Below are positions 4,777-63,568 of a stretch of 64,000 bases of DNA, piece by piece; within the stretch, counting starts at the first letter, position 1; each line of letters opens with the position of its first letter. The notes under the pieces are model-generated. The model was given only the letters and a program-made list of their open reading frames with translations. It did no database searches and was not told the origin of the DNA. A program made the position numbers and the translations under genes. The stretch is from Candidatus Nomurabacteria bacterium (GTDB lineage Bacteria > Patescibacteriota > Minisyncoccia > Phycocordibacterales > UBA918): contig JACKGI010000003.1 of the NCBI GenBank assembly GCA_020632015.1, positions 65,421 through 129,420 on the forward strand. The letters run 5' to 3'.

Positions 4777-5409
4777 ATGTCAGATAGATGGACAGAAAAT
4801 GTTAAGACAAATCTCTTGCCACTGAGTATTGAGAAAAATGATCTCAGAAAAGCCTTGGCTGAGTGGTTTTATACTGGTAATACATACGACCTTAGTTATC
4901 CTGATGAAAATTGCGAACTATGTAATCACCAAGGAATCAGGTTTCAGTTTGAAATTCAAAATTATCTTACCAAGAGTATCCTTTTAATTGGTTCAGAATG
5001 TATATTGCGTTTTTCTATTTCTGCAGTTGATGATCAAGGAAAAGTCTTAGACCAGAAAGAAACCACCAAAAAAGTTCATAAAGACAGACGGCAGTTAATA
5101 TCAGATGCAAGAACAAAGCGAGTAATTAATAGCTTGGTTGAATTAGCACAAAAAGACACAAAGTTTGACGGGATTGATAGTTCTATTGAATATTTTCAAG
5201 AGAGAGGTGCTTTTTCTCCTAAACATCTATTATTTTTACTTTGGAGGATGAAAGAGAGCGGTGTCTCTTTCAATAAGTCAGATTTCAAAATGACAATTAA
5301 AAGAAACAGAGAAAAGGATCAACTTTTAGATATGAAAGACTGGGAGGTTAGAAAAATATTACCAGCAATGTCTGCCTCACAACAAAAATGGTACCACGAG
5401 CATTCTTAA
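4777..5409 (+). CDS. hypothetical protein with an N-terminal CxxC motif
   Basis: 210-aa ORF containing CELCNHQGIRFQFEIQN...LLIGSECILRF. Its stop overlaps the convergent recombinase stop (TTAA). Confidence 0.5.
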   Translation: MSDRWTENVKTNLLPLSIEKNDLRKALAEWFYTGNTYDLSYPDENCELCNHQGIRFQFEIQNYLTKSILLIGSECILRFSISAVDDQGKVLDQKETTKKVHKDRRQLISDARTKRVINSLVELAQKDTKFDGIDSSIEYFQERGAFSPKHLLFLLWRMKESGVSFNKSDFKMTIKRNREKDQLLDMKDWEVRKILPAMSASQQKWYHEHS

Positions 5410-6701
5410 TTGATACTTAGCGAGAGTGTTTTATTTTTTAATATTAATTTACTTTCCAAACTTTCGAGCAATCTACGTTTTTCATCAATATTTCCATCTT
5501 TCAATATAAACTTGAAGTAAGTCTTAATATCTTTATCCGATACTTTGATTGCAGTACTTTTACCAGACAAAGCCAATTGAAATTTCTTGAATCTAGTCAC
5601 TTCTTCTTTAAGTTTCTTTAGCAGAGTATTTTCTTTTAACTTTATAGTGTCAACTAAATCTTGTAATTGTTTAATTAAATCATTTTCGTTTATATACCCA
5701 CATTTACAATTCTTGTCTTTTGCTTTTGTACAGCCATAGTAGATATGAGTATTAAACTTTCCATTCTTTAATTTCTTGTATTTTTCGTCTGCACTAATAC
5801 CAGAGCCGCACAGACCACAGGTCATTAGCTTGGTAAAAGCGAATTCTTTATCTTGTCTAGTTTTGAGTTGGTTGCCTTTTAGTTGTAATTGAACGGCATC
5901 AAATAGTTCTTTAGTAATTATTGGTTCATGTTTTCCTTTGTACCAAATACCAGCACCTCTTGGGTATTCAAACTCACCATAGTAGAAAGTATTTTCTAAG
6001 AGTTTGTATATGTTGCCGAGGCTGAGATGCTTCTTCCCAAGATGAGTACGAAAGTTTAAATCAAATTTAAGCCAATGATAGAGCTTTCTGCCTGACCATT
6101 GTTCATGGGCAACTTTTTCAAATATCTGCTTGATGACTGGTGCTCTGTCGGGGTCGATAAGACATTCATTCTTTCTGTCTAGTCTCCGTTCTTTTATATA
6201 GCCAGTAGCGGCTGTAGTTGGCCATAATCCAAGTTCACACCTTGCTCTTAGTCCTCGCTTCACATTAATACCCCGGTTGTCATTCTCTAGTTTTGCTTGG
6301 CTACAAAGAATCATTAAGAGAAACTTCTCATTTGGAGAGTTGCTGAATGTCTGTCCATATGTGCGAATAGATAAGAGTTTCCGTTCATCCATCAAATCAA
6401 CTACAGAGCCTAAATCTCCAGCGTTTCTACTTAATCTATCTGGTGCCCACGTAAGAATAGCGTTGAACTTTTCTTGCTTTACATCACCTAGTAATTCTTT
6501 GAATACTGGTCTGTTACCAGAATCCTTGGCTGACTTAGACTCACGTCTTATATCTACAACATCAATATTTTCACGCTCAGCGATTTGGAGCATTTCATTC
6601 ACTTGAGATTCAATTGATAGAGCTTGTCGCTCGTCACTCTCAGTACTTTTTCTTGCATACAAGCAGTATTTTAATTTCTCCACCGTTGCTCCTTCTGACA
6701 T
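5406..6701 (-). CDS. large serine recombinase (rec1)
   Basis: N-terminal resolvase motif YARKSTESDERQALSIESQ; the recombinase-domain and zinc-ribbon cysteines (TCGLCGSG...YYGC); and the coiled-coil C-terminus. Homologous to the 15423-16934 product (shared HEPIITKELFDAVQ). Confidence 0.85.
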   Translation of the reverse strand: MSEGATVEKLKYCLYARKSTESDERQALSIESQVNEMLQIAERENIDVVDIRRESKSAKDSGNRPVFKELLGDVKQEKFNAILTWAPDRLSRNAGDLGSVVDLMDERKLLSIRTYGQTFSNSPNEKFLLMILCSQAKLENDNRGINVKRGLRARCELGLWPTTAATGYIKERRLDRKNECLIDPDRAPVIKQIFEKVAHEQWSGRKLYHWLKFDLNFRTHLGKKHLSLGNIYKLLENTFYYGEFEYPRGAGIWYKGKHEPIITKELFDAVQLQLKGNQLKTRQDKEFAFTKLMTCGLCGSGISADEKYKKLKNGKFNTHIYYGCTKAKDKNCKCGYINENDLIKQLQDLVDTIKLKENTLLKKLKEEVTRFKKFQLALSGKSTAIKVSDKDIKTYFKFILKDGNIDEKRRLLESLESKLILKNKTLSLSIN

Positions 6702-6879
6702 ATCTATATTAATGACAGAACCACAAACCCTGCATAGCTATGCAAACAACAGAAACGTTATATACTCGCTTAGCAAAGGTTGAGTTTTGCGATATGATTG
6801 CCTTTAATAGCTTGGGAAGCTATTATATTGAACACAACAAAGACCTAACCCGACAGCTTGCTGGCGATATGGTCGTAAA

Positions 6880-6997
6880 ACCCGCTAGAGATCAAAGGAC
6901 TCCCAGTCAGAGTCACTCTAGCGGGTCATACCTGGAAACGGGTATGGGTCTGGCCGAAAGGTTGGATCGCAATGGCTGGGAGCCTTTTGGTATCCCA
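6880..6997 (+). ncRNA. candidate structured RNA or recombination-site region (unclassified)
   Basis: Consecutive stems: CCCGCTAGAG/CTCTAGCGGG enclosing GACTC..GAGTC; CATACC/GGTATG; CTGGCC-GAAA-GGTTGG with G.U pairs valid only on the + strand; CTGGGA/TCCCAG. Confidence 0.3.
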
Positions 6998-7492: not shown

Positions 7493-8929
7493 TTATCCCA
7501 GTAGGATACCTCGCTTTTTAGGTTTGCGATTCACTAGTATCTCAAGAATTGACATCGAAAAGGCGTCGGCTAGATCGTCGTGTTTTTCAACTCCAAAGTG
7601 AATTAATTCCTGCTCTAGTTTTGAGGATGCTCCAAAGGGAAAGAATACCTGTCCCGCACTTAACGGTGTGGCAGCTAAACTCAGCCGTTCACGCTTATCT
7701 CCTTGTGGTCTGATGCCTTCGACTTTAACATCATCTTCCTTAAGCTGTTGCACGATTGCTTCTTGATAGGCTACGTTCTCAATAAAGAACAATGGATCAA
7801 GTAAATACTTGGAGCGGAGTTTGTATTCAAGAAGCTTTATCTCCTGACAAGTCTCAGGAAAACTTAATCGTTTGTGTACGATTTCAGGTAGAATGTAAAG
7901 ATAAAGTTTTCTATCTTTCTCACAAGCTAGTATAGGTACTATTGCTGTGAAGTCAGCGTAGCTTTGTTTTGAAATAGCTAAATCAACTCCCACATATATT
8001 CCAAGCTGATGCATATCAGTGGGTATGTCGTGATAATGCTTGATCCATAGAGGATCTATGATTTGTCCTTCGTCAGCTATTAGTCTAAGTAGGTATTCTC
8101 GCTCCCATGCTTTAGCACTCATGACCTCTTTCTTGAGTTCAGCTAATGACTCAGGAGTTGTAAACTTTTCAGGCCATAAACACTCTCCGTTCTTGTCGAT
8201 AAGCGGAAACGCCTTGAATACACCTGACACCTCATCATTCTGAATCTTCTCTCGTAATCGCAAGATAAGTGAATCGTCATGGACTAAATTACCGATTAGA
8301 ATAATCTTTGTACCTAGATCACCCGAGGGAATAATTTCACTGGTAAACCAATTGAATGTCTTGTCTCGACCCTCTTGGGTTTTAGTGGAGCTAATGTCTT
8401 CAATGTCGTCACAGATAATTAAATCAGGTCGATGACTTTTATGTCGCAGTCCACGCATACTTTGATCGGCAGAAAGGACAGTAATGCGTGCATCATACTT
8501 AGGAATTACAATTGAAGATGCTCTCCATTCGTCTTGTGGTTCCTCAAACGGTCCAAGGTCTTGTCGCAAAAGTTCATTCCGTTCCAACTCTGCTTTAATG
8601 TTTTGTAGTAGCTGTTTCGCTTGAGGTTGTGTACGGGAGATTAACAGCACAAACTTTTTTTGTTGTACTCCAAGTATCGACCAAATTGGGTAGGACAGTG
8701 AAAAAATAGTGGACTTGGCAGATCCGCGGAAGGCTACCAAAACTGCTAGTTTTAGATCAGTCCGTTCAGTTATTTCAATCATTTCAGAATGAAACTTTGC
8801 ACTTGGATATTTCAGGTATTCACTAAAATACACAGGCAAGAAATAACCATGACTACGTGTAGTTATTTCACGTCTCACTAACGGATCAGAGATAACTCGT
8901 TCAAGTAATTCAAGTGGCATGTTATACAT
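7493..8929 (-). CDS. phage terminase large subunit-like protein
   Basis: Walker A-like FRGSAKST, Walker B LIICDDIED, and C-terminal RNase H-like nuclease acidic residues (GVDLA, ENVAYQ, HDDLADAF). Length 478 aa. Confidence 0.75.
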   Translation of the reverse strand: MYNMPLELLERVISDPLVRREITTRSHGYFLPVYFSEYLKYPSAKFHSEMIEITERTDLKLAVLVAFRGSAKSTIFSLSYPIWSILGVQQKKFVLLISRTQPQAKQLLQNIKAELERNELLRQDLGPFEEPQDEWRASSIVIPKYDARITVLSADQSMRGLRHKSHRPDLIICDDIEDISSTKTQEGRDKTFNWFTSEIIPSGDLGTKIILIGNLVHDDSLILRLREKIQNDEVSGVFKAFPLIDKNGECLWPEKFTTPESLAELKKEVMSAKAWEREYLLRLIADEGQIIDPLWIKHYHDIPTDMHQLGIYVGVDLAISKQSYADFTAIVPILACEKDRKLYLYILPEIVHKRLSFPETCQEIKLLEYKLRSKYLLDPLFFIENVAYQEAIVQQLKEDDVKVEGIRPQGDKRERLSLAATPLSAGQVFFPFGASSKLEQELIHFGVEKHDDLADAFSMSILEILVNRKPKKRGILLG

Positions 8930-13947: not shown

Positions 13948-14703
13948 ATGTTTGGATTTTTTAATAAACCATCTAGAAAAAAAGATTTAAAAGCTGTTAA
14001 GGATTTTCTAATTGCTCATTTTCAGCAAATCTATAGCGCTAAGGATAGGATCCCTCCGGATGTCTTTGACGTGTCCATGTTTTTTATAACAGAAGCGATC
14101 CAGCTATTTGACTCAATAGATATTCTGAGCCGAAAAAATCACCTTAGAGGGTGCTTGCCAATTGCTCGAACAATCATGGAGATTTCAATTAATCTTCAAT
14201 ACATATATAGAAAAGATGTAGAACAACGAGCTAAGCTCTTTAAACTTGACTCGATGTATGAGATGAGAAGAAAAGGAGACAGTATCGAAGACGAGTCTAA
14301 AGATAATCCTGTTTATCAAGAGTATATGAAAAAACTTGATGAAGAACTAAAAGACTATAAAAAAGAAAAGAAGACTATTTATGAAAAGGCAGCCGAAGTA
14401 AATATGAAATCATTTTATGTCAGTACATATCGACGTCTGTCTGAATATGTTCACTCGGGCTATAGACCAGCTCGTGATTTTGATGAAGAGGGTCCATATA
14501 ATGATTTTTTAAAGAGGGTGGTATTTACAGATACTGTTATGTTTATGTTGATGGGTCTTAAATCGGTGTGTGAGGAATATGATTTAGATGGCGGATTTAT
14601 GGTTATTGATGATCCTGGCTACAAAGGAATTGTATTCTTTTCCACTAACCCTAAAAAGGAAGAGGAACGCAGTAAAGCTTATGAAGAAAGTAAGAAAAAG
14701 TAA
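13948..14703 (+). CDS. helical protein of unknown function (possibly DUF5677-like)
   Basis: 251-aa ORF in the same operon. Motifs ARTIMEISINLQYIY...RAKLF and LSEYVHSGY. The family assignment is tentative. Confidence 0.5.
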   Translation: MFGFFNKPSRKKDLKAVKDFLIAHFQQIYSAKDRIPPDVFDVSMFFITEAIQLFDSIDILSRKNHLRGCLPIARTIMEISINLQYIYRKDVEQRAKLFKLDSMYEMRRKGDSIEDESKDNPVYQEYMKKLDEELKDYKKEKKTIYEKAAEVNMKSFYVSTYRRLSEYVHSGYRPARDFDEEGPYNDFLKRVVFTDTVMFMLMGLKSVCEEYDLDGGFMVIDDPGYKGIVFFSTNPKKEEERSKAYEESKKK

Positions 14704-15422: not shown

Positions 15423-16934
15423 CTAACTCGAGGAAGCCCGCACTTTAGGACAATCAACGGAAACAGAACCCGAGGCCGCCGCCGCGCAAGCGGCGGCGTG
15501 CCATGTGGCGGCCAAAGCAAAGGGCGAACGGCGCGGCACGCACAGCGTGCGCGCGGAAATGGACGGGTTCGAACCGATCTTTTTGAGGAAATCTCGATTT
15601 TCTTCGAGATTTCCTCGTGAAGTGATTTTTCCGGCTTGGTTGAGCGATTTAAGGAAGCGGGTCAAAGGTTCGAACCGATTATCACTCGTTCGCTCAAAAA
15701 CGGCGATTTGCTCTTTGAGGTCGGTCTTGCGATTTAGGAGCACTTGCTTTTTGTTTGTGTACTCGGTGTGTGTAATGGAACCATCAAGTTGGAGATCAAG
15801 CAAAGCGTCGAGTTTCTTCTCGATCGTTGTTATCTCACTTTCGAGTTTTTGAACGGACGACCGTTCCGCGTGTTGGTGGTGCGTGCGTTCTTTTTCTAAA
15901 ATTTGCACGCACGCATCCACCCACGCGGACGGCAAAGAAACTTTTTGGACTTCTTCTCGTACTTGCTCGGCTATTGCTTCCTCGCGCACATAGGGTTGGG
16001 TACATACTCCGCGGCGTTTGGTGCAGCGAAGGTAGTTGTGTCCTTTCTGAGTCTCGGTGGTTATCATGCAATCACACTCGCCACAACGGAACACGCCGCG
16101 GTAACTGTACGGCTTCAGTTTGGGTGCGCGAGTAGTGCGCGACTTGCTTCCCATGATGCTCTGTACCGCATCAAAAAGTTTCTTAGTGATAATCGGTTCA
16201 TGGACTCCGTCATAGAGTTCACCACCATATCTGATAGCTCCGTAGTAGATTGGATTCTTGAGTAGGTACTGATAGTTTGAAATTGAAAGGAGTTTATCCC
16301 GCTTCCCAACCAAGCCAGATTCGTTGATAACCTTTCGGAGTTTCAATAAGGGGTATTCGCCAGTTGCATAAAGCTCAAATGCTTTGCGGATGAGGGTTGC
16401 CTTGTCTGTATCGGGGACAATAGTGCGATTTGTTTTGTCATTCAAATATCCGATAGGTGCATATCCTGGCCATACGCCATTGCGGAGCTTCTGGCGAATA
16501 CCCCTCCTGATGTTCTCCGAAAGGTTATCAACGTAGTATTTGGATTGGCCGAAGGCGATGTTGAGCATGAACTTACCTTGCGGTGTATTTTCAAACCACA
16601 GGGTTGGAAACTTCAAGTACTTCAACTTACCAACATCCAGCAGATAAATAATCTTGCCGCCATCTACACTATTGCGCGCCAACCTATCCGCGTGCCACGC
16701 TACGATACCTTCAACATCGCCGTTCTCGACGCTCGCAAGCATCTCATTGAAAACTTCTCGTCCTGGTTCTTTCGCCGTCTTGCTCTCAACAAACTCACGG
16801 ACGATATGCAAATTCTCTTTTCGTGCAAACTCTCTCAATTCATGGAGCTGCGCCTCTATGCTTAGCACTTGCCTCTGCGCTTCGTCCGTGGACTTGCGAG
16901 CGTAGAGATAAAATTTTTGCGGAGTATCTTTCAT
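15423..16934 (-). CDS. large serine recombinase (rec2)
   Basis: YARKSTDEAQRQVLSIEAQ catalytic region, zinc-ribbon cysteines (RCGECDC...LRCTKRRGVC) and the coiled-coil C-terminus. Start set at the MKDTPQKF ATG. The last ~49 codons run through repeat A' and 14 nt into flanking DNA. Confidence 0.8.
   Translation of the reverse strand: MKDTPQKFYLYARKSTDEAQRQVLSIEAQLHELREFARKENLHIVREFVESKTAKEPGREVFNEMLASVENGDVEGIVAWHADRLARNSVDGGKIIYLLDVGKLKYLKFPTLWFENTPQGKFMLNIAFGQSKYYVDNLSENIRRGIRQKLRNGVWPGYAPIGYLNDKTNRTIVPDTDKATLIRKAFELYATGEYPLLKLRKVINESGLVGKRDKLLSISNYQYLLKNPIYYGAIRYGGELYDGVHEPIITKKLFDAVQSIMGSKSRTTRAPKLKPYSYRGVFRCGECDCMITTETQKGHNYLRCTKRRGVCTQPYVREEAIAEQVREEVQKVSLPSAWVDACVQILEKERTHHQHAERSSVQKLESEITTIEKKLDALLDLQLDGSITHTEYTNKKQVLLNRKTDLKEQIAVFERTSDNRFEPLTRFLKSLNQAGKITSRGNLEENRDFLKKIGSNPSISARTLCVPRRSPFALAATWHAAACAAAASGSVSVDCPKVRASSS
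15438..15571. repeat. inverted repeat A' (reverse complement of 17202-17335)
   Basis: 134 bp aligned by eye, with about 6 mismatches clustered around 15536-15556. Confidence 0.85.
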
Positions 16935-20881: not shown

Positions 20882-20940
20882 TACGAATACTGGTTATCGG
20901 CAGACCTGCAGGCTCTTATTTAGAGCCATATAAAATTGCC

Positions 20941-20981
20941 GTTCGAATCCCTGAGGGGTTACACCCCTCAGGGATTCGAAC
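20941..20981. repeat. perfect palindrome with 19-bp arms containing a T-loop-like TTCGAATCC
   Basis: GTTCGAATCCCTGAGGGGT-TAC-ACCCCTCAGGGATTCGAAC, located between the element's right junction and the HIT promoter. Confidence 0.8.
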
Positions 20982-20999
20982 TTTTGGTATACTCTGGAC

Positions 21000-22005: not shown

Positions 22006-22066
22006 CGGGACTAAATACTTAGTATCGGATGACCCGGAGGGTTCGAGTCCCGGAGCCCCCGCCGTT
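22006..22066 (+). other. tRNA-like 3' fragment (T-loop GGTTCGAGTCC plus acceptor-like CCCCCGCC), not a complete tRNA
   Basis: GCGGG...GGGTTCGAGTCCCGGAGCCCCCGCC lies directly after the stop codon. No anticodon arm could be folded. Confidence 0.3.
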
Positions 22067-22119
22067 TAGAGCTAGCACGAAACACTATGTTTAGTGCTAG
22101 TTTTGTTTATAATAAAAAC

Positions 22120-57960: not shown

Positions 57961-58031
57961 TGCCGGATCGTCTAATGGTAGGACTACGGTTTTTGGTGCC
58001 GTCTATCGGGGTTCGAGTCCCTGTCCGGCAG
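57961..58031 (+). tRNA. tRNA-Gln(TTG)
   Basis: TGCCGGA..GTCT-AATGGTA-GGAC..ACGGT-TTTTGGT-GCCGT..CGGGG-TTCGAGT-CCCTG-TCCGGCA-G. No CCA. Confidence 0.85.
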
Positions 58032-58032
58032 C
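58014..58032 (+). repeat. direct repeat copy 1 (tRNA-Gln 3' end)
   Basis: CGAGTCCCTGTCCGGCAGC recurs at 62799-62817. Confidence 0.9.
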
Positions 58033-58156
58033 ATAATTTTGGAATTAAGTTCCGAAGCAACAACTACGGCTTTATTACTTGCTGGATTCTTTTGGAGAGT
58101 GATTTCTTCGCTATTTAGTGTATGTACACGCTTAGCAATGAACTCAAATGCCTTGT

Positions 58157-58441
58157 TTAGACAGGTGTTACCACCTTTTTTTCTACAAGTAGTTTCTCAA
58201 ATACGATACCAAGCAGCTTTCGTTTCTGTTGTTTCGTCGCGTTGTAGTAGAAGTCTTCAGCTTGTTGGGTGAGATCGAGTATATGTGAGCCTAGTTCGAC
58301 GTAGCTTAAGTTGGCGTCTTTGTGCTTTGTGATTGCTGCCGTAATAGCATCAAGTTCTTTTGAGTATTGCTCGAACTTCTTCTCGTAGAATTCGTTAGTT
58401 ATGTTGCCGTCAATCTTTTCATCATGTGGTTCCGAGCTAAA
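58157..58441 (-). pseudogene. C-terminal remnant of a large serine recombinase (rec3)
   Basis: ...DGNITNEFYEKKFEQYSKELDAI...KRKLLGIVF aligns by eye with the coiled-coil tail of rec2 (LDGSITHTEYTNKKQ...). The catalytic N-terminus is absent. Confidence 0.6.
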
Positions 58442-58545
58442 AAGAATAAACTCAAGTTTTATAAGCAGGATTATAAAAACCATCTGAACTACCAAAAGCC
58501 TTTCATCCTGACGGAAAGCAAGTTTTTGTCGTATTCAGAGAGAAG

Positions 58546-58761
58546 GTGTTACGAGAGGAGTCTCAGGTGTGGTTACATGAATTAATTAAAGAGCAGAAAA
58601 AATTCTTAGGATCTTCACTACACGACCAAGTTATTGATTTGCAGGATGTTAGAAACACATTTCATTTGTCGCGACCACGTTTTGTTTTGTCACCTGAAAC
58701 AGTCAACGATTCATTTACTGTAGTTTTGAAAATAGTTAATAAAATCGGTAAGGAAGCGTAG
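58546..58761 (+). CDS. hypothetical small protein
   Basis: 71-codon ORF with a GTG start. No motif. Confidence 0.3.
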   Translation: MLREESQVWLHELIKEQKKFLGSSLHDQVIDLQDVRNTFHLSRPRFVLSPETVNDSFTVVLKIVNKIGKEA

Positions 58762-58766
58762 TTTTT

Positions 58767-58952
58767 ATGACAAAAGATGAGTTAATTAAACGCTATAAGG
58801 AGGTACATAAAGAAAAGACAGGAGAGGATATCACTAACGTTGAGGCTTTAGATCAGGCACTTAACTTAGTAAGTTTAGTTAAGGCTGTATATCAACCCAA
58901 AAAATATACTGCTAATATGATATCCTGTGTCAATGAGTCCAGAAGAACATAA
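58767..58952 (+). CDS. hypothetical small protein
   Basis: 61-codon ORF. No motif. Confidence 0.35.
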   Translation: MTKDELIKRYKEVHKEKTGEDITNVEALDQALNLVSLVKAVYQPKKYTANMISCVNESRRT

Positions 58953-60768
58953 TCAAGAAATAAATACAGAAGAAACTGTTGTAGAGGACGCTCAGAATGT
59001 TGACCTAGTCGCTCCGAAATCTTCCTTTAATTGGAAGCAGTTATCGATAATACTCATTTCTATTATAGTAGGTGGGAGTATTGTTGCTGGAGCGTTTTTT
59101 TGGAAAGAATACCAAAAGGTTCAACCGCCCGAGGACATTACTCCTGAAGAAGAAGAGATGGTTTGGACACCTCCAGAAACAGAAGTTGATGATTGGTCAT
59201 TGCCTGAGGAAGATTATATCGATAATGACGAAGATACAGAAGATGTTGATGAAGAGGATAAAGAACCAAAAGAAGCAAAACCTTCTCTGTGGAATCTGTT
59301 AAAAAATGAACCTACTGTCGAACAGTACGAGCTTTCTGTTGACTGGTTAGACCGTCCTGTAGAAAATGAGGTGAATGAGCTACCAGTTTCTGGACCAAGT
59401 CGCTCATATACCGTTGGAACAATCACAAATGGATCCTTAGCTGATGAATCAATCTATCTACTCTATGAATCTGGAATGGGTAATGATTATCCGAGTGGTT
59501 TGTTCGTCTTAACTCCCGAGGTAATTAAGGTGACTGAATGGATGGATGACGTATCGAATCTACCAGATTCTATTTCAAGCACTGACAGCAAGATCAAACT
59601 AAAAAAAGATGGGGAGCTCTTTGCTGCAATGATTGATATCGAAGATATGCGTGAGTGGCATGATGCGACAATTGATACTCTGACGTTTGAGGGTCTGGAA
59701 AATATTCCTGAGAACCAACTATATACTTACAATGAATGTTTGTTTGCGAGAACGCCAAGTGACCTAGTGGTTGAGTATATTATTGATATTCCATTTATTG
59801 ATGATGAAGACGAGGGATCATATTCAACTCCTGAGATTACTTTCAATAGAATTGATGGAGACGTAATGACTGCTGAATACGAGATCTACGACAGAGTCTC
59901 TTATGGATGTGGCTCACTCTGTTCTCCTCTCAAGGTAGTGGAGCGTACCGATGATGAATTTATAAAGACGGGCACTACAGACGATGGTTCTGATCTATTT
60001 GTACTTAAAGATGTGTATGACGAAAGATATGATGCACTATATACACAGAAAAACACTAGGGCATTCGTCGATACTTCAAGTGGATCATACAATGCGTTGA
60101 GTGAGAACAAATACTCATATGAAGAGTTTATTGGCGTTGTGCCACTCCTTTATTGGAAGGACCCGCTGGGAAGGTGGGTAGAGTTTGTTAATACAGAATT
60201 TATCATTCTTGCTGAGAAGTGTAAGCCAGTTATTTACTTGTACCCAGAAGAGGAAACAGACCTGCATGTAGAGGTTGAACCAAATATCGGCTTCACTAAA
60301 ACTATTCCCGAGTATAAAGATGGATGGGATGTGACTGCATATCCTGACGGAACAGTTATAGATAGGGAAACTGGAGAGGATTATCATTATCTATATTGGG
60401 CAGGACTGGTTGATGGGTATCCATTGATAGAAGAAGGATGGGTAGTGACACAGTCTGATATACCTGCTTTCTTTGATTACATATTGCCTCTATACGGGCT
60501 ACAAGGAAGTGAGATAACTGACTTTACTGAATATTGGGAAGAGGACTTAGACGAAGCCCCATACTACGCAATCAGCTTTGTTGATCAAGCTATCATTGAT
60601 GAGTTATCTCCGTTAACTCTTGATAAAGAACCAGATGTAGTAATGCGTGTCCTTATGACCGCAAAACCGTTGGAGAGGCCTATTAAGCTCCCGCAACCTC
60701 AGCTTCCCGAGTTACCTGAAAGAGAAGGCTTTACTGTCATTGAGTGGGGAGGAACTATCTTGAGATAG
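58927..60768 (+). CDS. membrane-anchored acidic extracellular protein of unknown function
   Basis: 613 aa with one TM near the N-terminus and an acidic linker (EEDYIDNDEDTEDVDEEDKE). No recognised domain. Confidence 0.65.
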   Translation: MSMSPEEHNQEINTEETVVEDAQNVDLVAPKSSFNWKQLSIILISIIVGGSIVAGAFFWKEYQKVQPPEDITPEEEEMVWTPPETEVDDWSLPEEDYIDNDEDTEDVDEEDKEPKEAKPSLWNLLKNEPTVEQYELSVDWLDRPVENEVNELPVSGPSRSYTVGTITNGSLADESIYLLYESGMGNDYPSGLFVLTPEVIKVTEWMDDVSNLPDSISSTDSKIKLKKDGELFAAMIDIEDMREWHDATIDTLTFEGLENIPENQLYTYNECLFARTPSDLVVEYIIDIPFIDDEDEGSYSTPEITFNRIDGDVMTAEYEIYDRVSYGCGSLCSPLKVVERTDDEFIKTGTTDDGSDLFVLKDVYDERYDALYTQKNTRAFVDTSSGSYNALSENKYSYEEFIGVVPLLYWKDPLGRWVEFVNTEFIILAEKCKPVIYLYPEEETDLHVEVEPNIGFTKTIPEYKDGWDVTAYPDGTVIDRETGEDYHYLYWAGLVDGYPLIEEGWVVTQSDIPAFFDYILPLYGLQGSEITDFTEYWEEDLDEAPYYAISFVDQAIIDELSPLTLDKEPDVVMRVLMTAKPLERPIKLPQPQLPELPEREGFTVIEWGGTILR

Positions 60769-60772
60769 ATAC

Positions 60773-62539
60773 ATGAGTTGGATTAAAAATCACATAATAC
60801 CGCTAGTTGTGGTCTTGTTGAGTGTACTGATAGCTGTCGGTGTACTTTTGTACGAAGAGGAACTTCCAGAAGTAGAAGTTGTAGAAGAGGTTTTAAGTTC
60901 AGAGTTTCACTCAGCTTACTCTAATGATGAAACTCTTTACGGTATCAATTCTACCGATGGGTTAGATCAAAAATACACAGATACTGTTTACGGAGGGATT
61001 GTTTCTCACCATCTACTTTCAAACATTGATATTGCAAAGTTCTTTCACGAGTTCAGTGACCAAAAAGTAGATAAAGTTATTCTGATTGGACCCAACCATT
61101 TTTACCCAACAACATTTCCAGCTCTATCAACAAATCTAGATTACAAAACACCATTTGGTAACGTATTCGTTGATGAGGAATATATAGAGAAGATGGTGTC
61201 CAAGAAATTAGTACAAATTGCTGATGAGACTGTCGATACCGAGCATTCAGTTTCTTCGTTGGTGCCATATGTTGCTCACTATTTACCAGGAGCAAAGTTG
61301 GTTCCAGTCATATTTACAAGGAACGCCCCTGATGAACTCCTAGAGGACATCTCGGAGTTTTTGAAGAAGAACAATACAGAGAACACTATCGTGATTTCGA
61401 GTGTAGATTTCTCTCATCATTTGTACAGCAACGCATCTGCTCTACACGACTTAAGGTCCGTGTCAGCTATAAAGAGTTTCGACATCCCGAGCTTATCAGA
61501 GTTGGAAGTAGATAGCCCTCAATCCTTAAGTGTTCTGTTGCAGTACCTAGAGTCGATTGATGCTCAAGATATTTCTCTATGGCAACAAAACGCTGCAAAT
61601 ATTTTTGATGAATATGACATTGATGACGTTACATCGTATGTCTTTGCTCATGCTCGAAAGGGAAAAATGAAAGCCGAATCGGGTGCAAGCATGCTGTTCT
61701 TTGGAGACACAATGCTTGGTAGAGGGGTGGAAGAAATGATAGATGGGAATGTGGATTTATTCGCTGGAATTCGTGGTCCAGAGGGTAACTTCTTGAGAGG
61801 CTATGATGGTATAGCAGTAAATCTTGAGGGAGCGATTGCGGGAGATGATTGTGACTCTGTAGATGATGAGTTGCTTATACAGGCAGATAATTTGAAGTTA
61901 TTGAAGCAAGAGAATATTTCTCATGTGGGAGTAGTTAATAACCATTTTCAAAAATGTGATGAAGCTCAAGGTGTATCAGAAGTTGAGGGTAATGGTTTGA
62001 TTACACTTAACTCTAGTGATGTTATTCAAATAGAAGGTACTGATTTAGACATAGGAGTTCTGTCTGTATACGCAGCCCCTGTACCAACAGATATTTCAAA
62101 TATAGTGGAGTCGGTAAGGTTGGCTTCTCTGAAGAACGAAAAACTAATTGTGAACATACATTGGGGGGTAGAGTACAGCACTGAGCCTACTGGTGCACAG
62201 AAAGAACTAGCACACGCCATGGTTGATGCTGGAGCAGATATAGTCATTGGTCATCATCCGCACGTAATTCAATCAGTTGAAGTCTATAATGACGGAATCA
62301 TTGCTTATTCCCTTGGGAATTTTATTGCTGACCAAGAAGGAGAGATGACCAAGACAGGATTAGCTGCAGGAGTTTTCTTAAATGATACAAAAAAAGATTT
62401 ATTCTTATTTCCATTTGAGCAGAGAGAGGGTGTGCCAACACACTTAACTCAGGAAGTGGCAGGAGATATTTGCGACACTATTTTAGTATCAGAAATTAAT
62501 CACCCTAAACATAGTTGTATTATCCAAGTTGCAGATTAA
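60773..62539 (+). CDS. membrane-anchored fusion: Memo/AmmeMemoRadiSam-B-like N-domain plus CapA-family metallophosphatase C-domain
   Basis: N-part GGIVSHHLL...LIGPNHF...TEHS. C-part GDTMLGR, NLEG, NNH, HWGVEY, GHHPH and SLGNF (CapA/PGA-synthesis family pattern). Confidence 0.7.
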   Translation: MSWIKNHIIPLVVVLLSVLIAVGVLLYEEELPEVEVVEEVLSSEFHSAYSNDETLYGINSTDGLDQKYTDTVYGGIVSHHLLSNIDIAKFFHEFSDQKVDKVILIGPNHFYPTTFPALSTNLDYKTPFGNVFVDEEYIEKMVSKKLVQIADETVDTEHSVSSLVPYVAHYLPGAKLVPVIFTRNAPDELLEDISEFLKKNNTENTIVISSVDFSHHLYSNASALHDLRSVSAIKSFDIPSLSELEVDSPQSLSVLLQYLESIDAQDISLWQQNAANIFDEYDIDDVTSYVFAHARKGKMKAESGASMLFFGDTMLGRGVEEMIDGNVDLFAGIRGPEGNFLRGYDGIAVNLEGAIAGDDCDSVDDELLIQADNLKLLKQENISHVGVVNNHFQKCDEAQGVSEVEGNGLITLNSSDVIQIEGTDLDIGVLSVYAAPVPTDISNIVESVRLASLKNEKLIVNIHWGVEYSTEPTGAQKELAHAMVDAGADIVIGHHPHVIQSVEVYNDGIIAYSLGNFIADQEGEMTKTGLAAGVFLNDTKKDLFLFPFEQREGVPTHLTQEVAGDICDTILVSEINHPKHSCIIQVAD

Positions 62540-62798
62540 AACATTTTTAACCTACTTAGGTTATGTATAGTCTATATAAAGGGTGGGGGTCAATTCGGGG
62601 GTACCCCCCTTTTATATATAGAAGTTCGAGAATGATGCACCAGATTGATGTCTGTTTGATATCAACTAGGTGCAGACAGTTATTTGTTTTAAATGAAGAG
62701 TATTGGTTGATCTAAATTAGGTAGTTAACTCAAGGATATTTTCGAGGGAGTGAGATATTTTGAGTTCAAAGAACGAAGAAAATATCCACGAGAGTGAC

Positions 62799-62817
62799 CG
62801 AGTCCCTGTCCGGCAGC
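62799..62817 (+). repeat. direct repeat copy 2 of the tRNA-Gln 3' end
   Basis: Identical 19-mer located 4.78 kb from the tRNA. Confidence 0.9.
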
Positions 62818-62824
62818 TCGTAAG

Positions 62825-62848
62825 AAAAGCACCCGCAAGGGTGTTTTT
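62825..62848 (+). terminator. terminator inside the tRNA-Gln distal module
   Basis: AAAAGCACCC-GCAA-GGGTGTTTTT. An outer stem TGTCCGGCAGC/GCTGCCGGACA pairs the acceptor copy. Confidence 0.7.
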
Positions 62849-62858
62849 CTGTATACGG

Positions 62859-62905
62859 GCTGCCGGACAAGAAATAGTTTGGGAAACTATTTCGTGGGAC
62901 TCGAA
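62859..62905 (+). repeat. inverted tRNA-Gln 3'-end copy split by TGGGA-loop hairpin H3
   Basis: GCTGCCGGACA + A-GAAATAGTT-TGGGA-AACTATTTC-GT + GGGACTCGAA. This equals the reverse complement of TTCGAGTCCCTGTCCGGCAGC with a clean 26-nt insertion. Confidence 0.9.
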
Positions 62906-62947
62906 AAGCTTTTGAGATAGATTTGATTGATGTGATATGCTTTTTGT

Positions 62948-63376
62948 ATGGAGAAAACTAGTAACTCAGAAATAATGGATGAAGAAGTAGTTGCTCTTAA
63001 GCAGCTTGCTGAACAAGAAATTCGCAAAATTGAACAGCTTCCTCAGCCGGTAGTACGGGTATGTGGTCCTCTTACTTGCGATGGGCCAGAAGGATATTTA
63101 AGAAGCGCTGACCGTCTAGCGCTAGCAGAGAAGGTTTTGCAGGATAAAGGAATGTCTATCTGGACCTTTGGTGATTCAGAAGAAGAGATATTTGGTAAAG
63201 GCTATTCCGATGAGAATGTCTTTGAATTTTTCCATAAACCAATTCTAGAATCTGGTTTGATACAGGAAGCATATTTCTTGCCTAGATGGGACGAATCCAA
63301 CGGAGCTACTTTAGAAAGAAATACTGCAAGAGATGCTAAGGTTTCAATTCAGGAGTTTCTTGAAGAATGGTTCTAA
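62948..63376 (+). CDS. hypothetical protein (possibly DUF4406/nucleoside deoxyribosyltransferase-like)
   Basis: 142-aa ORF. TGATATGCT lies 6 nt upstream. The family call is weak. Confidence 0.5.
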   Translation: MEKTSNSEIMDEEVVALKQLAEQEIRKIEQLPQPVVRVCGPLTCDGPEGYLRSADRLALAEKVLQDKGMSIWTFGDSEEEIFGKGYSDENVFEFFHKPILESGLIQEAYFLPRWDESNGATLERNTARDAKVSIQEFLEEWF

Positions 63377-63568
63377 CATCGTCCCAAACGGCCAGCACGA
63401 GAATTAAGGCGCCTTCGGGCGCTTTTTATGTGAACTTATGCACATATTGCAAATTTAAACAGTAGGAGTAACATAATTATTGTATATAGACATCGTTCTA
63501 TACCCTTACATATCCAAGTAATCGCGTAGGCCCCTGTCTATGATTTACTAGAATTAACTTGGAAAAAT

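Follow-up and report, generated by a model that had tools for sequence, protein, structure and literature searches.

The tRNA-Gln gene analysed here is followed, some 4.8 kb downstream, by a second copy of its own 3' end and then by a terminator and a split, inverted copy of the same sequence. What is the segment between the two direct copies, and what is the structured module behind it? We analysed a stretch of 64,000 nt from a Candidatus Nomurabacteria bacterium (the window) together with related loci, given below by L numbers. The analysis assigns the organism, a MAG, to the Patescibacteria (Ca. Kaiserbacteria/Paceibacteria). The best explanation, which we hold to be probable, is a decayed large serine recombinase (LSR) island in tRNA-Gln, with the module as the distal non-coding arm of such elements. 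The island itself is ordinary; the module family is the new part.

Boundaries and contents of the tRNA-Gln island

The segment and its borders contain the following features:

57961–58032, + strand: intact tRNA-Gln(UUG) (ARAGORN; Rfam tRNA, 53.9 bits); its last 19 nt (58014–58032) are the proximal repeat, the putative attL core
58033–58495, − strand: LSR pseudogene, C-terminal ~150 codons with one frameshift near 58157 (three-frame translation, P0001 homology, colinear alignment to the L005 LSR)
58546–58952, + strand: two small ORFs of 71 and 61 aa, no family match (ORF list, family searches)
58927–60768, + strand: 613-aa protein with an N-terminal hydrophobic segment, no family match; gene 1 of a two-gene operon (Pfam; L103 homologue)
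60773–62539, + strand: 588-aa protein with an N-terminal hydrophobic segment, fusing Memo-like and PGA_cap (CapA-like) parts (Pfam, E = 2e-22 and 7e-38; NCBIfam AmmeMemoSam_B)
62735–62798, + strand: the island's distal arm, with the hairpin GGATATTTTC...GAAAATATCC and then ACGAGAGTGAC, adjoining the distal repeat (inverted repeat, fold, comparison with L004, L008 and L017)
62799–62817, + strand: distal direct repeat (exact, 19 nt), the putative attR core and former tRNA-Gln 3' end

ARAGORN places the tRNA-Gln(ttg) gene at 57961–58032 and Rfam at 57961–58031. The 19-mer CGAGTCCCTGTCCGGCAGC at its end has only two exact copies, at 58014–58032 and 62799–62817, against none expected from 100 shuffles even when 2 mismatches are allowed; the preliminary description had proposed an island bounded by this repeat, and we agree. 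The arrangement is that of tRNA-gene integration: the insert lies between direct repeats of the 3' segment of the tRNA, which itself stays intact. The G+C content of the island equals that of its surroundings. Judged by its sequence, the DNA enclosed by the repeats (~4.8 kb) is an integrative element that has decayed.

The ORF at 58157–58495 on the − strand contains no Pfam domains, only the tail that follows the zinc ribbon being left. Its homologue P0001 (66% identity) has the LSR zinc-ribbon domain PF13408 and is colinear with residues 268–489 of an intact Resolvase, Recombinase and Zn_ribbon protein that adjoins tRNA-Gln in L005, and the same tail is present in L002. Past one frameshift, the reading continues to 58033 and then into the tRNA antisense (..MLPDRDSNPD..). 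The element had been described as carrying a serine recombinase C-terminal remnant ending short of the tRNA; the identity is right, but the remnant is longer and reaches the tRNA. A working LSR was considered and rejected, since the Resolvase and Recombinase domains and the zinc ribbon are absent and the copy is a pseudogene.

LSR genes or tail remnants homologous to that of the window adjoin tRNA-Gln likewise in 13 related loci. The LSR lineage of the window does so in all six metagenome loci (L089–L094) and in L002, and a second lineage in L005 and six of seven further loci. Intact homologues hold the tRNA-proximal position in L005, L089–L092, L096 and L098–L102, where the window has only its frameshifted remnant, and in the elements seen at tRNA-Gln the last ~20 codons of the LSR are tRNA antisense. 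This recurring gene arrangement shows tRNA-Gln to be a target site for LSR integrative elements and a recurrent landing site of at least two LSR lineages.

The larger genes of the island form an operon. Its second product had been taken for a Memo-like/CapA-like fusion, and the Pfam Memo and PGA_cap and NCBIfam AmmeMemoSam_B matches bear this out; it has 237 homologues across Patescibacteria. The 613-aa protein is 82% identical, over 501 aligned codons, to the product of the gene upstream of the Memo/PGA_cap homologue in L103. The earlier view of a two-gene cargo needs qualification: the location of the operon varies among relatives, but it is widely conserved in Patescibacteria and is not a sporadic accessory set, so that 'cargo' may mean captured or relocated host genes. 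No replication gene (primase/polymerase or RCR Rep) of the kind that would liken the island to tycheposons or AICEs was found in 58033–62798.

An island-free arrangement is seen in relatives. In L001, the closest relative found (PyrG 83% identity), tRNA-Gln is followed by the terminator, the inverted copy and the hairpin with nothing between, which is the order predicted beforehand for a deletion of the island; in L017 and L029, a module likewise directly follows the tRNA. The empty site for the island of the window would read tRNA-Gln joined to TCGTAAGAAAAGCACCC... Within the same species, neither an excision junction nor an allele without the island turned up; contigs L082–L085 all carry the island and L086–L088 stop inside the tRNA.

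The L001 arrangement argues against the view that no integration took place, the 4.8 kb being native and the 19-nt repeat being part of a module unit (tRNA-like end, terminator and inverted copy) kept identical to the tRNA by gene conversion. So do the recombinase tail, which adjoins and overlaps the tRNA as in the 13 other loci, the occurrence of the operon in three other contexts with no tRNA nearby (L103–L105) and a search between the recombinase remnant and the operon that found no degenerate tRNA end. We regard this view as quite improbable, even though the operon is a conserved Patescibacteria gene pair of unremarkable composition, PGA_cap homologues adjoin PyrG/tRNA-Gln in distant relatives and L005 has a degenerate tRNA-like block with the same terminator at the position equivalent to the distal repeat.

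A module remnant and its family

Beyond the distal repeat, and further upstream at tRNA-Asp and tRNA-Met, the window contains:

62825–62848, both strands: intrinsic terminator, bidirectional, at the tip of a long palindrome with arms 62807–62822 and 62854–62869
62859–62928, + strand: truncated module, 5' half (nhmmer E = 5.6e-7, profile positions 4–69; alignment; pattern search)
62948–63376, + strand: 142-aa ORF with a weak DUF4406 match, occupying the expected place of the module 3' half
63369–63428, + strand: conserved pseudo-tRNA-end block GGTTCTAACATCGTCCCAAACGGCCAGCAC with a terminator at 63409–63422 (terminator prediction, comparison with L005, L100 and L101)
51954–52128, − strand: full-length module after tRNA-Asp, ending in an exact 20-nt tRNA-Asp 3'-end repeat (nhmmer E = 2.3e-26)
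51716–51878, + strand: divergent module after tRNA-Met2, with a terminator and an inverted tRNA 3' end split by a TGGGA hairpin (weak nhmmer match, E = 0.34)
50584–50757, + strand: third module subtype, TGAG-hairpin-CGCAAGAC...GGTGTAC, between the tRNA-Met1 27-nt repeats (nhmmer E = 1e-5)

The terminator reported at 62825–62848 is present and acts, by prediction, on both strands. The split reverse complement of the tRNA-Gln 3' 21 nt is likewise real: GCTGCCGGACA-[26 nt]-GGGACTCGAA at 62859–62905 matches at 21 of 21 positions and is the sole match in the window, with none expected by chance. Its 26-nt insert is a perfect 9–10-bp hairpin (stem 62871–62880 / 62884–62893). The truncated module comprises the inverted acceptor strand (62859–62869), the P2 hairpin (62870–62895), the inverted T-arm (62896–62905) and the 5' strand of P4 to ~62928; a promoter-like site (62912–62941) falls inside it. 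The segment 62795–62910 forms one three-way fold, with −44.6 kcal/mol as DNA against −13.4 ± 2.4 in shuffles (z = −13).

A likeness to the modules at tRNA-Met and tRNA-Asp had been claimed, and a profile built from such modules matches both 62863–62928 (E = 6e-7) and the tRNA-Asp module (E = 2e-26). However, only a 5' half is present beyond the distal repeat, ending near 62928 before the ORF at 62948–63376. The hairpin described as TGGGA is conserved at its position, but the TGGGA loop is common rather than universal. The tRNA-Met and tRNA-Asp modules are themselves real, each with a repeat of the local tRNA: 32 nt of the tRNA-Met2 3' end in an exact direct repeat (spacing 150 nt), an exact 20-nt repeat of the tRNA-Asp 3' end (spacing 170 nt) and a 27-nt repeat (93%) of the tRNA-Met1 leader and 5' end (spacing 147 nt). 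The third subtype also occurs in L009, L100 and L104.

The island's own distal arm departs from the canonical module. The outer copies of the GATATTTT motif are the arms of a hairpin with a 10-bp stem (GGATATTTTC at 62735–62744 and GAAAATATCC at 62780–62789), and the triple motif, for which a protein-binding array had been suggested, is better read as a hairpin before ..GTGAC/CGAGTCC, as in a second module subtype (L004, L008, L017). The arm resembles only the 3' end of that subtype.

Full modules, of ~130–150 nt, accompany tRNA-Met, Asp, Thr and Gln genes in Paceibacteria. The parts of a module, in order, are a terminator, the acceptor strand of the local tRNA in reverse complement, hairpin P2, the T-arm in reverse complement, the long hairpin P4, a conserved GTACTGA, hairpin P5 (TGTAA loop) and the tRNA 3' end repeated in direct orientation. 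Profile searches of 1.25 Mb of sampled Paceibacteria DNA gave 27 matches, 15 of them on the same strand as a tRNA and 21–78 nt downstream of it (~0.2 expected). Structure is clearly conserved: 91% of cells are paired, compared with 69% in shuffles and 32–51% in slid controls, double-change cells number 80 vs 27 in shuffles, at least 10 different perfect stems occur at the P2 position and folding z-scores are −9 and −13. A search with the Rfam 15 covariance models gave no match to the module at the gathering score or at E <= 5, beyond generic hairpin noise. We also considered a MITE- or REP-type repeat and rejected it, as the flanks are 19–32-nt copies of the local tRNA end and not short duplications, and no transposase lies nearby.

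Strong covariation and a same-strand position just past tRNAs would also suit a host structured RNA or a device of the tRNA-gene 3' flank (a read-through clamp, a substrate for RNase or a small tRNA-like RNA with an acceptor/T helix that copies the tRNA next to it), unrelated to mobile elements, with islands merely inserting beside it. The best pairing partner of the inverted copy is the upstream tRNA end with 5–6 nt of trailer, across the terminator, and the order in the window fits a resident module displaced by the island. Moreover, the modules of the window, L001 and L005 stand at equivalent positions and their P2 stems differ by a compensated pair, which could mean selection in place, independent of mobile elements. 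We nevertheless consider a host RNA unlikely. Mismatches are G.T in 17 and A.C in 13 of 417 cells and the two strands fold equally well, which fits DNA rather than a one-strand RNA; no promoter-like site was found ahead of the modules, and the terminator lies upstream of the inverted copy. Modules also occur in tandem arrays, in inverted orientation (L009, L100) and at a site without a tRNA (L104).

Returning to a decayed island as the probable reading, we propose that a single LSR element would have recombined within the T-loop-to-3'-end segment of the gene and supplied its own copy of that segment, which would have kept the tRNA intact at 58014–58032 and pushed the old 3' end 4785 bp downstream, to 62799–62817. 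Loss of the recombinase except for its last ~150 codons would then have left a fixed island with a conserved two-gene envelope-type operon. The terminator, inverted tRNA copy and hairpin would have been carried along with the old tRNA end, as the 5' half of an older resident module.

Modules in intact islands and their possible role

L005 has its LSR intact, and exact 19-nt repeats bound its island of 4752 bp. The module lies at the far end, next to the distal repeat, in three of three intact LSR islands with a visible far end (L005, L100 and L101), a count that covers lineages other than that of the window, whose intact islands extend beyond the sequence reached. In these three, the module is 4.6–4.9 kb from the tRNA, just inside the distal repeat, and is preceded by the GGTTCTAACATCGTCCCAAACGGCCAGCAC block, which mismatches the local tRNA; such a position also speaks against a host RNA serving the adjacent tRNA gene. 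An HUH Rep gene (PF23343, E = 5e-12 to 3e-21) adjoins the LSR gene in L098–L102, its product showing weak RepSA similarity below the Pfam cut-off, and the L089 element carries LSR, Prim-Pol, FtsK/SpoIIIE and type I R-M genes. No Rep gene was found in L005 or the window, and the rolling-circle link therefore comes from L098–L102 and the combination of module and Rep from L100 and L101 only. The arrangement of these loci shows the module family as the non-coding arm beside the distal repeat of intact LSR islands, Rep being encoded in some of them as well. Because the arm is next to the distal repeat in all three, the module is most likely a cis-acting end of these elements.

The module putatively acts through its nucleic-acid fold, whose basal stem has the attachment core as one of its strands; this would explain why its arms always match the neighbouring tRNA. 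Our best guess is a single-stranded-DNA role in the excised, replicating element, such as a lagging-strand origin or a packaging-type structure. Solo modules and arrays would be leftovers after deletion of the coding part or products of repeat-mediated duplication.

The split antisense copy could alternatively be a guide (guide-hairpin-guide) by which a recombinase or nuclease would find the tRNA gene, comparable to bridge RNAs, omega RNAs or the homing crRNAs of CRISPR-associated transposons. We think this very improbable: LSRs, to which the associated enzyme belongs, are a protein-guided family, none of the modules examined has an IS110, TnpB, IscB or Cas gene beside it, and G.T and A.C mismatches are symmetric. 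The arms around the conserved hairpin do complement the target and vary with the target tRNA, and the element ends in a sense copy of the target, as for an omega-RNA guide, but intramolecular pairing with the core fully explains the complementarity.

A more far-reaching idea, tentative and in our judgement unlikely, is that the module represents a new class of cis-acting structured nucleic acid, with which a mobile element folds its attachment core on a built-in antisense copy, putatively as single-stranded DNA or cruciform. Such a module could link the excised element's replication to its integration by the serine recombinase, or determine directionality with no need for a dedicated excision factor. 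Since the fold needs complementarity between arm and core, changes of tRNA target (Met, Asp, Thr, Gln) would also be recorded in it and might be made easier by it.

The genomes of CPR bacteria are tiny, and few descriptions exist of their mobile elements. Among the elements at tRNA-Gln, some have rolling-circle or primase-type replication genes, and one has decayed and holds a conserved envelope-type operon. Modules may mislead annotation through tRNA fragments, spurious ORFs (e.g., 62760–62915) and assembly breaks. LSRs are genome-engineering tools, and an LSR family whose tRNA target is conserved and easy to predict, and which may bring a structured accessory arm, could have practical value.

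Comparison with known systems

The tycheposons of Prochlorococcus integrate into tRNA genes and restore the tRNA, leave partial-tRNA direct repeats and push older insertions outward; their account also describes degenerate remnants, fragmented integrases, a minority with large serine recombinases, and primase/polymerase with cargo (bioRxiv 10.1101/2020.12.28.424599). Features common to the tRNA-Gln elements here are shared with tycheposons and with tRNA islands in general, L089 being the element to compare. The ~140-nt structured arm with its antisense attachment core sets our elements apart, the consulted parts of the tycheposon account making no mention of such an arm (bioRxiv 10.1101/2020.12.28.424599). 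Unlike tycheposons, the elements reside in Patescibacteria, and every one seen at tRNA-Gln uses an LSR that ends in tRNA antisense.

AICEs have tyrosine integrases with Xis, and pSAM2 encodes the rolling-circle initiator RepSA and an FtsK-like translocase. Similarly, L098–L102 have a Rep, weakly RepSA-like, beside the recombinase, and L089 has an FtsK/SpoIIIE gene. AICEs are small elements that sit in particular tRNA genes, and the consulted part of their description does not mention a structured antisense-core arm (PMC2440964). The recombinase also differs, being an LSR here.

LOOT RNA (RF03000) is, like the module, a structured motif of these phyla; unlike LOOT, the module matches no Rfam family. 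LOOT RNA itself occurs in the window at 6842–6968, beside an LSR gene, and also inside the L005 island.

In its size of ~150 nt, its extensive intrastrand pairing, its few conserved unpaired motifs and its presence on elements with HUH Rep (L100, L101), the module resembles a single-strand origin (sso) of rolling-circle plasmids or the intergenic region of filamentous single-stranded-DNA phages. RCR replicons encode an HUH Rep, and the sso and the phage intergenic region are non-coding stretches of ~150 nt, highly paired with a few conserved unpaired motifs. The structure is present in our loci, together with Rep in L100 and L101 and without it in L005 and the window. Predictions for CPR hosts include inoviruses that encode an RCR Rep, a serine or tyrosine recombinase and toxin-antitoxin genes (PMC6813254). 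Unlike the sso and the phage region, the module has the attachment core in its basal stem, and L100 and L101 showed no phage morphogenesis gene.

The integron attC, which PMC5737381 discusses, is a folded site at the 3' ends of cassettes on which the tyrosine recombinase IntI acts. We considered the module as an attC and rejected this, as no IntI gene is present in the window region or the loci examined and the associated enzyme is an LSR. In attC and the CTX-phage attP(+), direct and inverted copies of the recombination sequence ~100 nt apart form an imperfect palindrome with a bulged hairpin, and occur in arrays; the module likewise has direct and inverted core copies that fold together, and occurs in arrays. 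The users of attC and attP(+) are tyrosine recombinases (IntI, XerCD), which exchange one strand pair, whereas an LSR makes concerted double-strand breaks, which on a hairpin would leave capped chromosome ends.

Repeats and relatives of the tRNA-Gln island

The window contains two exact copies of the 19-mer CGAGTCCCTGTCCGGCAGC and no more (58014-58032 and 62799-62817), against a chance expectation of 0. tRNA-Gln has the first copy as its 3' end, and the second is followed by a series of elements that return to the same tRNA sequence.

Features at the two ends of the island
57961-58032, tRNA-Gln(UUG), with the first 19-mer copy as its 3' end
62825-62848, terminator (A-run, hairpin, T-run); the minus strand also scores as a terminator
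62859-62869, GCTGCCGGACA, 3' of the second 19-mer copy
62870-62895, 26-nt insert forming a perfect 9-10-bp hairpin
62896-62905, GGGACTCGAA, second flank of the hairpin insert

Joined and reverse-complemented, GCTGCCGGACA and GGGACTCGAA are identical to the final 21 nt of tRNA-Gln, and the gapped pattern (the two flanks separated by 26 nt) has a single match in the window, where none is expected by chance. As single-stranded DNA, 62795-62910 adopts one three-way fold of -44.6 kcal/mol, compared with -13.4 +/- 2.4 kcal/mol for shuffles. The preliminary description had reported the exact repeat and, beyond its distal copy, the terminator, the split inverted tRNA copy and the hairpin; all are present, with coordinates only slightly amended.

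The order PyrG-tRNA-Gln is kept across 80 Patescibacteria loci. The closest relative found is L001 (PyrG 83%). Its tRNA-Gln is followed by a terminator, then GCTACCCAGATA (an imperfect inverted copy of the acceptor strand) and the hairpin AGAAATAGTCCGGGGGACTATTT, the counterpart of the window hairpin, at which point the contig ends. The island-free locus that had been proposed for comparison is therefore represented, as an empty-type arrangement, in the nearest relative. In L017 and L029, tRNA-Gln is followed by a terminator, a full module and a tRNA-end repeat; L016, L012 and L009 lack all of these elements. Exact-protein look-ups with the downstream ORF and PyrG found no empty allele in the same species, and every contig with the identical downstream ORF also has the island. 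Three independent Logan contigs with identical PyrG stop inside tRNA-Gln (L086 and L087 at 58028, L088 at 57993). These are uninformative, because tRNAs common to strains break assemblies anyway; the stops fit strain-level variation or common tRNA k-mers and are no evidence of an empty site. An empty-site junction would be expected to read ...ATCGGGGTTCGAGTCCCTGTCCGGCAGCTCGTAAGAAAAGCACCC, and an excised-circle junction ...ATATCCACGAGAGTGACCGAGTCCCTGTCCGGCAGCATAATTTTGGAATT.

Two further tRNA-like sequences were seen elsewhere in the window. At 20940-20982 lies a perfect palindrome with a 19-bp stem, GTTCGAATCCCTGAGGGGT-TACA-CCCCTCAGGGATTCGAAC, which resembles a tRNA T-arm and has no tRNA gene near it. 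At 22030-22100, a tRNA- or tmRNA-like 3' fragment (..CCGGAGGGTTCGAGTCCCGGAGCCCCCGCC) precedes a terminator hairpin; neither ARAGORN nor Rfam reports a gene there, and the fragment could be a displaced attachment-site remnant.

Recombinase remnant and cargo

ORF 58157-58495 (minus strand) has no Pfam match. All-frame translation extends it past one frameshift to 58033 and then into the tRNA antisense (..SELNSKIMLPDRDSNPD..). The repaired 146-aa tail aligns over 95% of its length, at 66% identity, with the homologue P0001, which bears the recombinase zinc-ribbon domain PF13408 and is colinear with residues 268-489 of a 500-aa L005 protein that has Resolvase, Recombinase and Zn_ribbon_recom domains. 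Through these two proteins, the reported C-terminal remnant of a serine recombinase can be assigned to the recombinase family. The L005 large serine recombinase (LSR) gene lies on the opposite strand directly after tRNA-Gln, its final codons being tRNA antisense, and the L005 island measures 4752 bp with exact 19-nt repeats at both sides.

A tail-alignment scan of metagenomes gave six loci, and in all six tRNA-Gln overlaps the recombinase 3' end. None of the six showed a distal end within 10 kb, so for the LSR lineage of the window itself the far arm was not seen. One element, L089, has genes for an LSR, a Prim-Pol primase, FtsK/SpoIIIE and type I R-M, and L002 carries the same tail remnant as the window. 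The L005-type lineage has 4431 matches at E <= 1e-20 and ends in tRNA-Gln in six of the seven contexts fetched. Since loci of both types end in tRNA-Gln, at least two LSR lineages of the clade have this tRNA as their dedicated target; the window carries the tail of one of them. The island is an insert bounded by repeats; it contains a recombinase remnant and lies at a target proven for LSRs.

An intact second LSR gene is present at 5406-6701 (minus), 140 nt from a LOOT RNA at 6842-6968 (Rfam, 76.9 bits); the interval includes a TGGGA-loop hairpin (6803-6827). By eye, the neighbouring ORF 7493-8929 resembles a phage terminase large subunit. LOOT also occurs within the L005 LSR island (14321-14429) and may be an RNA that belongs to mobile elements with an LSR; the main text of the LOOT paper (PMC5737381) does not mention the motif's context. 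A third LSR homologue, at about 15519-16916 (minus), is 32% identical to the L005 LSR over 476 aa and ends in an unusually G+C-rich stretch (15430-15560) with a T-loop-like GGGTTCGAACC, in which no tRNA or Rfam family was found. A tmRNA or other RNA at 15430-15560 and 22030-22065 was dropped for want of Rfam support.

The island encodes two small unmatched ORFs, a 613-aa protein without a family match and a 588-aa Memo + PGA_cap fusion. Of the two large membrane-anchored proteins described before, the fusion is confirmed, and anchoring is represented by a hydrophobic N-terminal stretch seen in both translations. Across Patescibacteria, 237 homologues of the fusion were found, their identity falling gradually from 71% to 32%. 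In L103, L104 and L105 it again lies downstream of a ~610-aa gene (in L103 homologous to the 613-aa gene, with 82% identity over 501 aligned codons), amid three distinct gene sets with no tRNA in any. This recurrence in differing contexts indicates a conserved gene pair at a variable location. In the window the operon lies within the repeat-bounded segment, the stretch between it and the recombinase remnant contains no degenerate tRNA end, and island G+C is unremarkable.

A PGA_cap (CapA-like) gene is also found beside PyrG in five more distant loci, between PyrG and tRNA-Gln in L021 and L078 and elsewhere beside PyrG in L043, L055 and L079. The window fusion lies 3' of the tRNA, inside the island. 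A ~70-nt motif (..GTGGAAGACTTTGTACCAnGTTAGAACCTCTnT..ATGGAGTGTnCnAATTT..) recurs 5' of the 610-aa/Memo-PGA_cap operon and again 5' of the gene that follows (L105 7020-7140 and 10850-10970; L104 800-930). It may be a common leader or regulatory element, and was not noticed in the window by reading alone.

A folded module beside tRNAs and at island ends

The module begins, after the tRNA and a terminator, with the reverse complement of the local acceptor strand (5' strand of P1) and hairpin P2, continues with the reverse complement of the T-arm (GGGAYTCGAA), the long hairpin P4 and a conserved GTACTGA, and closes with hairpin P5 (TGTAA loop) and a direct copy of the tRNA 3' end. A profile made from ten copies and searched against 1.25 Mb (E < 1e-3) gave 27 matches. 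Fifteen lie 21-78 nt 3' of a same-strand tRNA gene for Met, Asp, Gln or Thr, compared with about 0.2 expected, and most of the others are in arrays or at island ends.

Modules in the window
50584-50757, third module subtype, 5' of tRNA-Met1, between 27-nt repeats of leader and 5' end
50634-50696, profile match within that same element 5' of tRNA-Met1, E 1e-5
51746-51826, tRNA-Met2 module, profile E 0.34
51958-52087, minus strand, tRNA-Asp module, profile E 2e-26
62863-62928, tRNA-Gln module remnant, profile positions 4-69 only, E 6e-7

The likeness drawn earlier between the tRNA-Gln and tRNA-Asp modules is borne out by this single profile; that to the tRNA-Met modules extends to the copy 5' of tRNA-Met1, the tRNA-Met2 copy falling short of the cut-off. 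Across 17 aligned copies, 91% of cells are paired (69% in shuffles, 32-51% in slid controls) and 80 cells are changed on both sides, compared with 27 in shuffles. At P2, at least ten different perfect stems occupy one position. The P2 loop is often, not always, YGGGR, and TGGGA was rejected as the module-defining feature: loops vary (GGG, TAAAT, GAA, AAAG and others), and the TGGGA hairpin at 6803-6827 has no further module features.

The best pairing partner of the inverted copy is the upstream tRNA end together with 5-6 nt of its trailer, the two making a palindrome with the terminator inside it. Mismatches of the G.T and A.C types are about equally frequent (17 and 13 of 417 cells) and both module strands fold equally well; neither observation carries the one-strand signature expected of an RNA. 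Rfam searches of the window and full modules, at the gathering score and at E <= 5, gave no module family; the matches were limited to tRNAs, LOOT, group I introns and hairpin noise. An IMG/VR scan for GTACTGANNCTGTAAGNNTCGA gave one chance match within a phage coding region. On reading the sequence, hammerhead or other ribozyme cores, T-box-like UGGN pairing, H/ACA-like pockets and RNase P guide mimicry were set aside, as their defining motifs or partner genes are absent.

The third subtype (TGAG-hairpin(TGGGA)-CGCAAGAC-long hairpin-GGTGTAC-hairpin) also occurs at L009 7160-7300(-), L015 881-948, L100 ~5850-5945 and L104 4746-4850(-); it is found inverted too, and in L104 is distant from any tRNA. 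Group I introns (RF00028, 60-63 bits) lie near the tRNA cluster in two related Paceibacteria loci, L010 (61-319) and L029 (608-834).

All three intact LSR islands with a visible far end share one layout directly inside the distal repeat (L005 16808-17004; L101 ~6519-6750; L100 ~5840-6140): a GTTCCAACTTCGTCCCAGAC(A/G)GCCAGC block, a terminator (in L005 and L100, with just a short spacer instead in L101), the inverted tRNA-Gln end, P2, GGGAnTCGAA and the rest of the module. The covarying family thus both flanks tRNAs and makes the far arm of intact LSR islands. The block resembles the tRNA-Gln 3' end, yet is independent of the local tRNA sequence, all copies sharing three substitutions and a CAACTTC insert; a secondary recombination site and a nick site are possibilities.

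Copies of the GTTCCAACTTCGTCCCAGAC(A/G)GCCAGC block
Window 63369-63398, terminator next
L005 16808-16838 and 17690-17715
L100 ~6115-6140
L101 ~6720-6750

The window island ends differently, with a hairpin (62735-62789) and then ACGAGAGTGAC, resembling the end of the second module subtype (..GTGAC|CGAGTCC) in L004, L008 and L017. The L098-L102 islands carry toxin genes and, directly 5' of the LSR gene, an HUH rolling-circle initiator gene (PF23343, E = 5e-12 to 3e-21; motifs HYH and FYLAKYMTK). Among known elements, pSAM2 has a RepSA-type initiator.

Proposed history and comparison with known systems

The overall reading of the preliminary description, a tRNA-Gln island with a displaced module, holds on the repeats, the remnant and the L001 arrangement. 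We propose that the module was resident beside tRNA-Gln beforehand, as in L001, that entry of the island moved it 4.8 kb, and that ORF 62948-63376 later took the place of its 3' half, for which a promoter-like site lies within the module remnant.

The module would act as folded DNA of the excised element, probably while single-stranded, its basal stem being formed by the attachment core and the core's antisense copy; such pairing would explain why arms track the local tRNA. An origin-like function is a guess that we consider unlikely to be right. An LSR working directly on the folded hairpin, in the style of CTX phage, was rejected on mechanism, because concerted double-strand cleavage of a hairpin would cap chromosome ends. 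Solo modules and arrays (unit spacing 147-196 nt) would come from loss of the segment that separates the tRNA end from the internal tRNA-like block, or from duplication mediated by repeats. Since the right half of the target, the tRNA 3' end, is the same in element and chromosome, attL resembles attB and attR resembles attP. As predicted from these sequences, this would allow repeated insertion and perhaps, given B' = P', excision without a directionality factor.

Taken by itself, the island is decayed and of an ordinary type. It belongs with known tRNA-targeting cargo elements, among them tycheposons, which show partial-tRNA repeats, stacked insertions, remnants and some LSRs (bioRxiv 10.1101/2020.12.28.424599). 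It also resembles AICEs, which integrate into tRNA genes (PMC2440964). Predictions for CPR hosts include inovirus-like elements with RCR Rep and serine recombinases (PMC6813254). A structured arm with an antisense core is not described in the papers searched, which is weak negative evidence. What is new by comparison is the consistent use of LSRs, with the LSR tail overlapping the tRNA, and the structured arm that holds an antisense copy of the core; the module family is real and conserved, and apparently undescribed.
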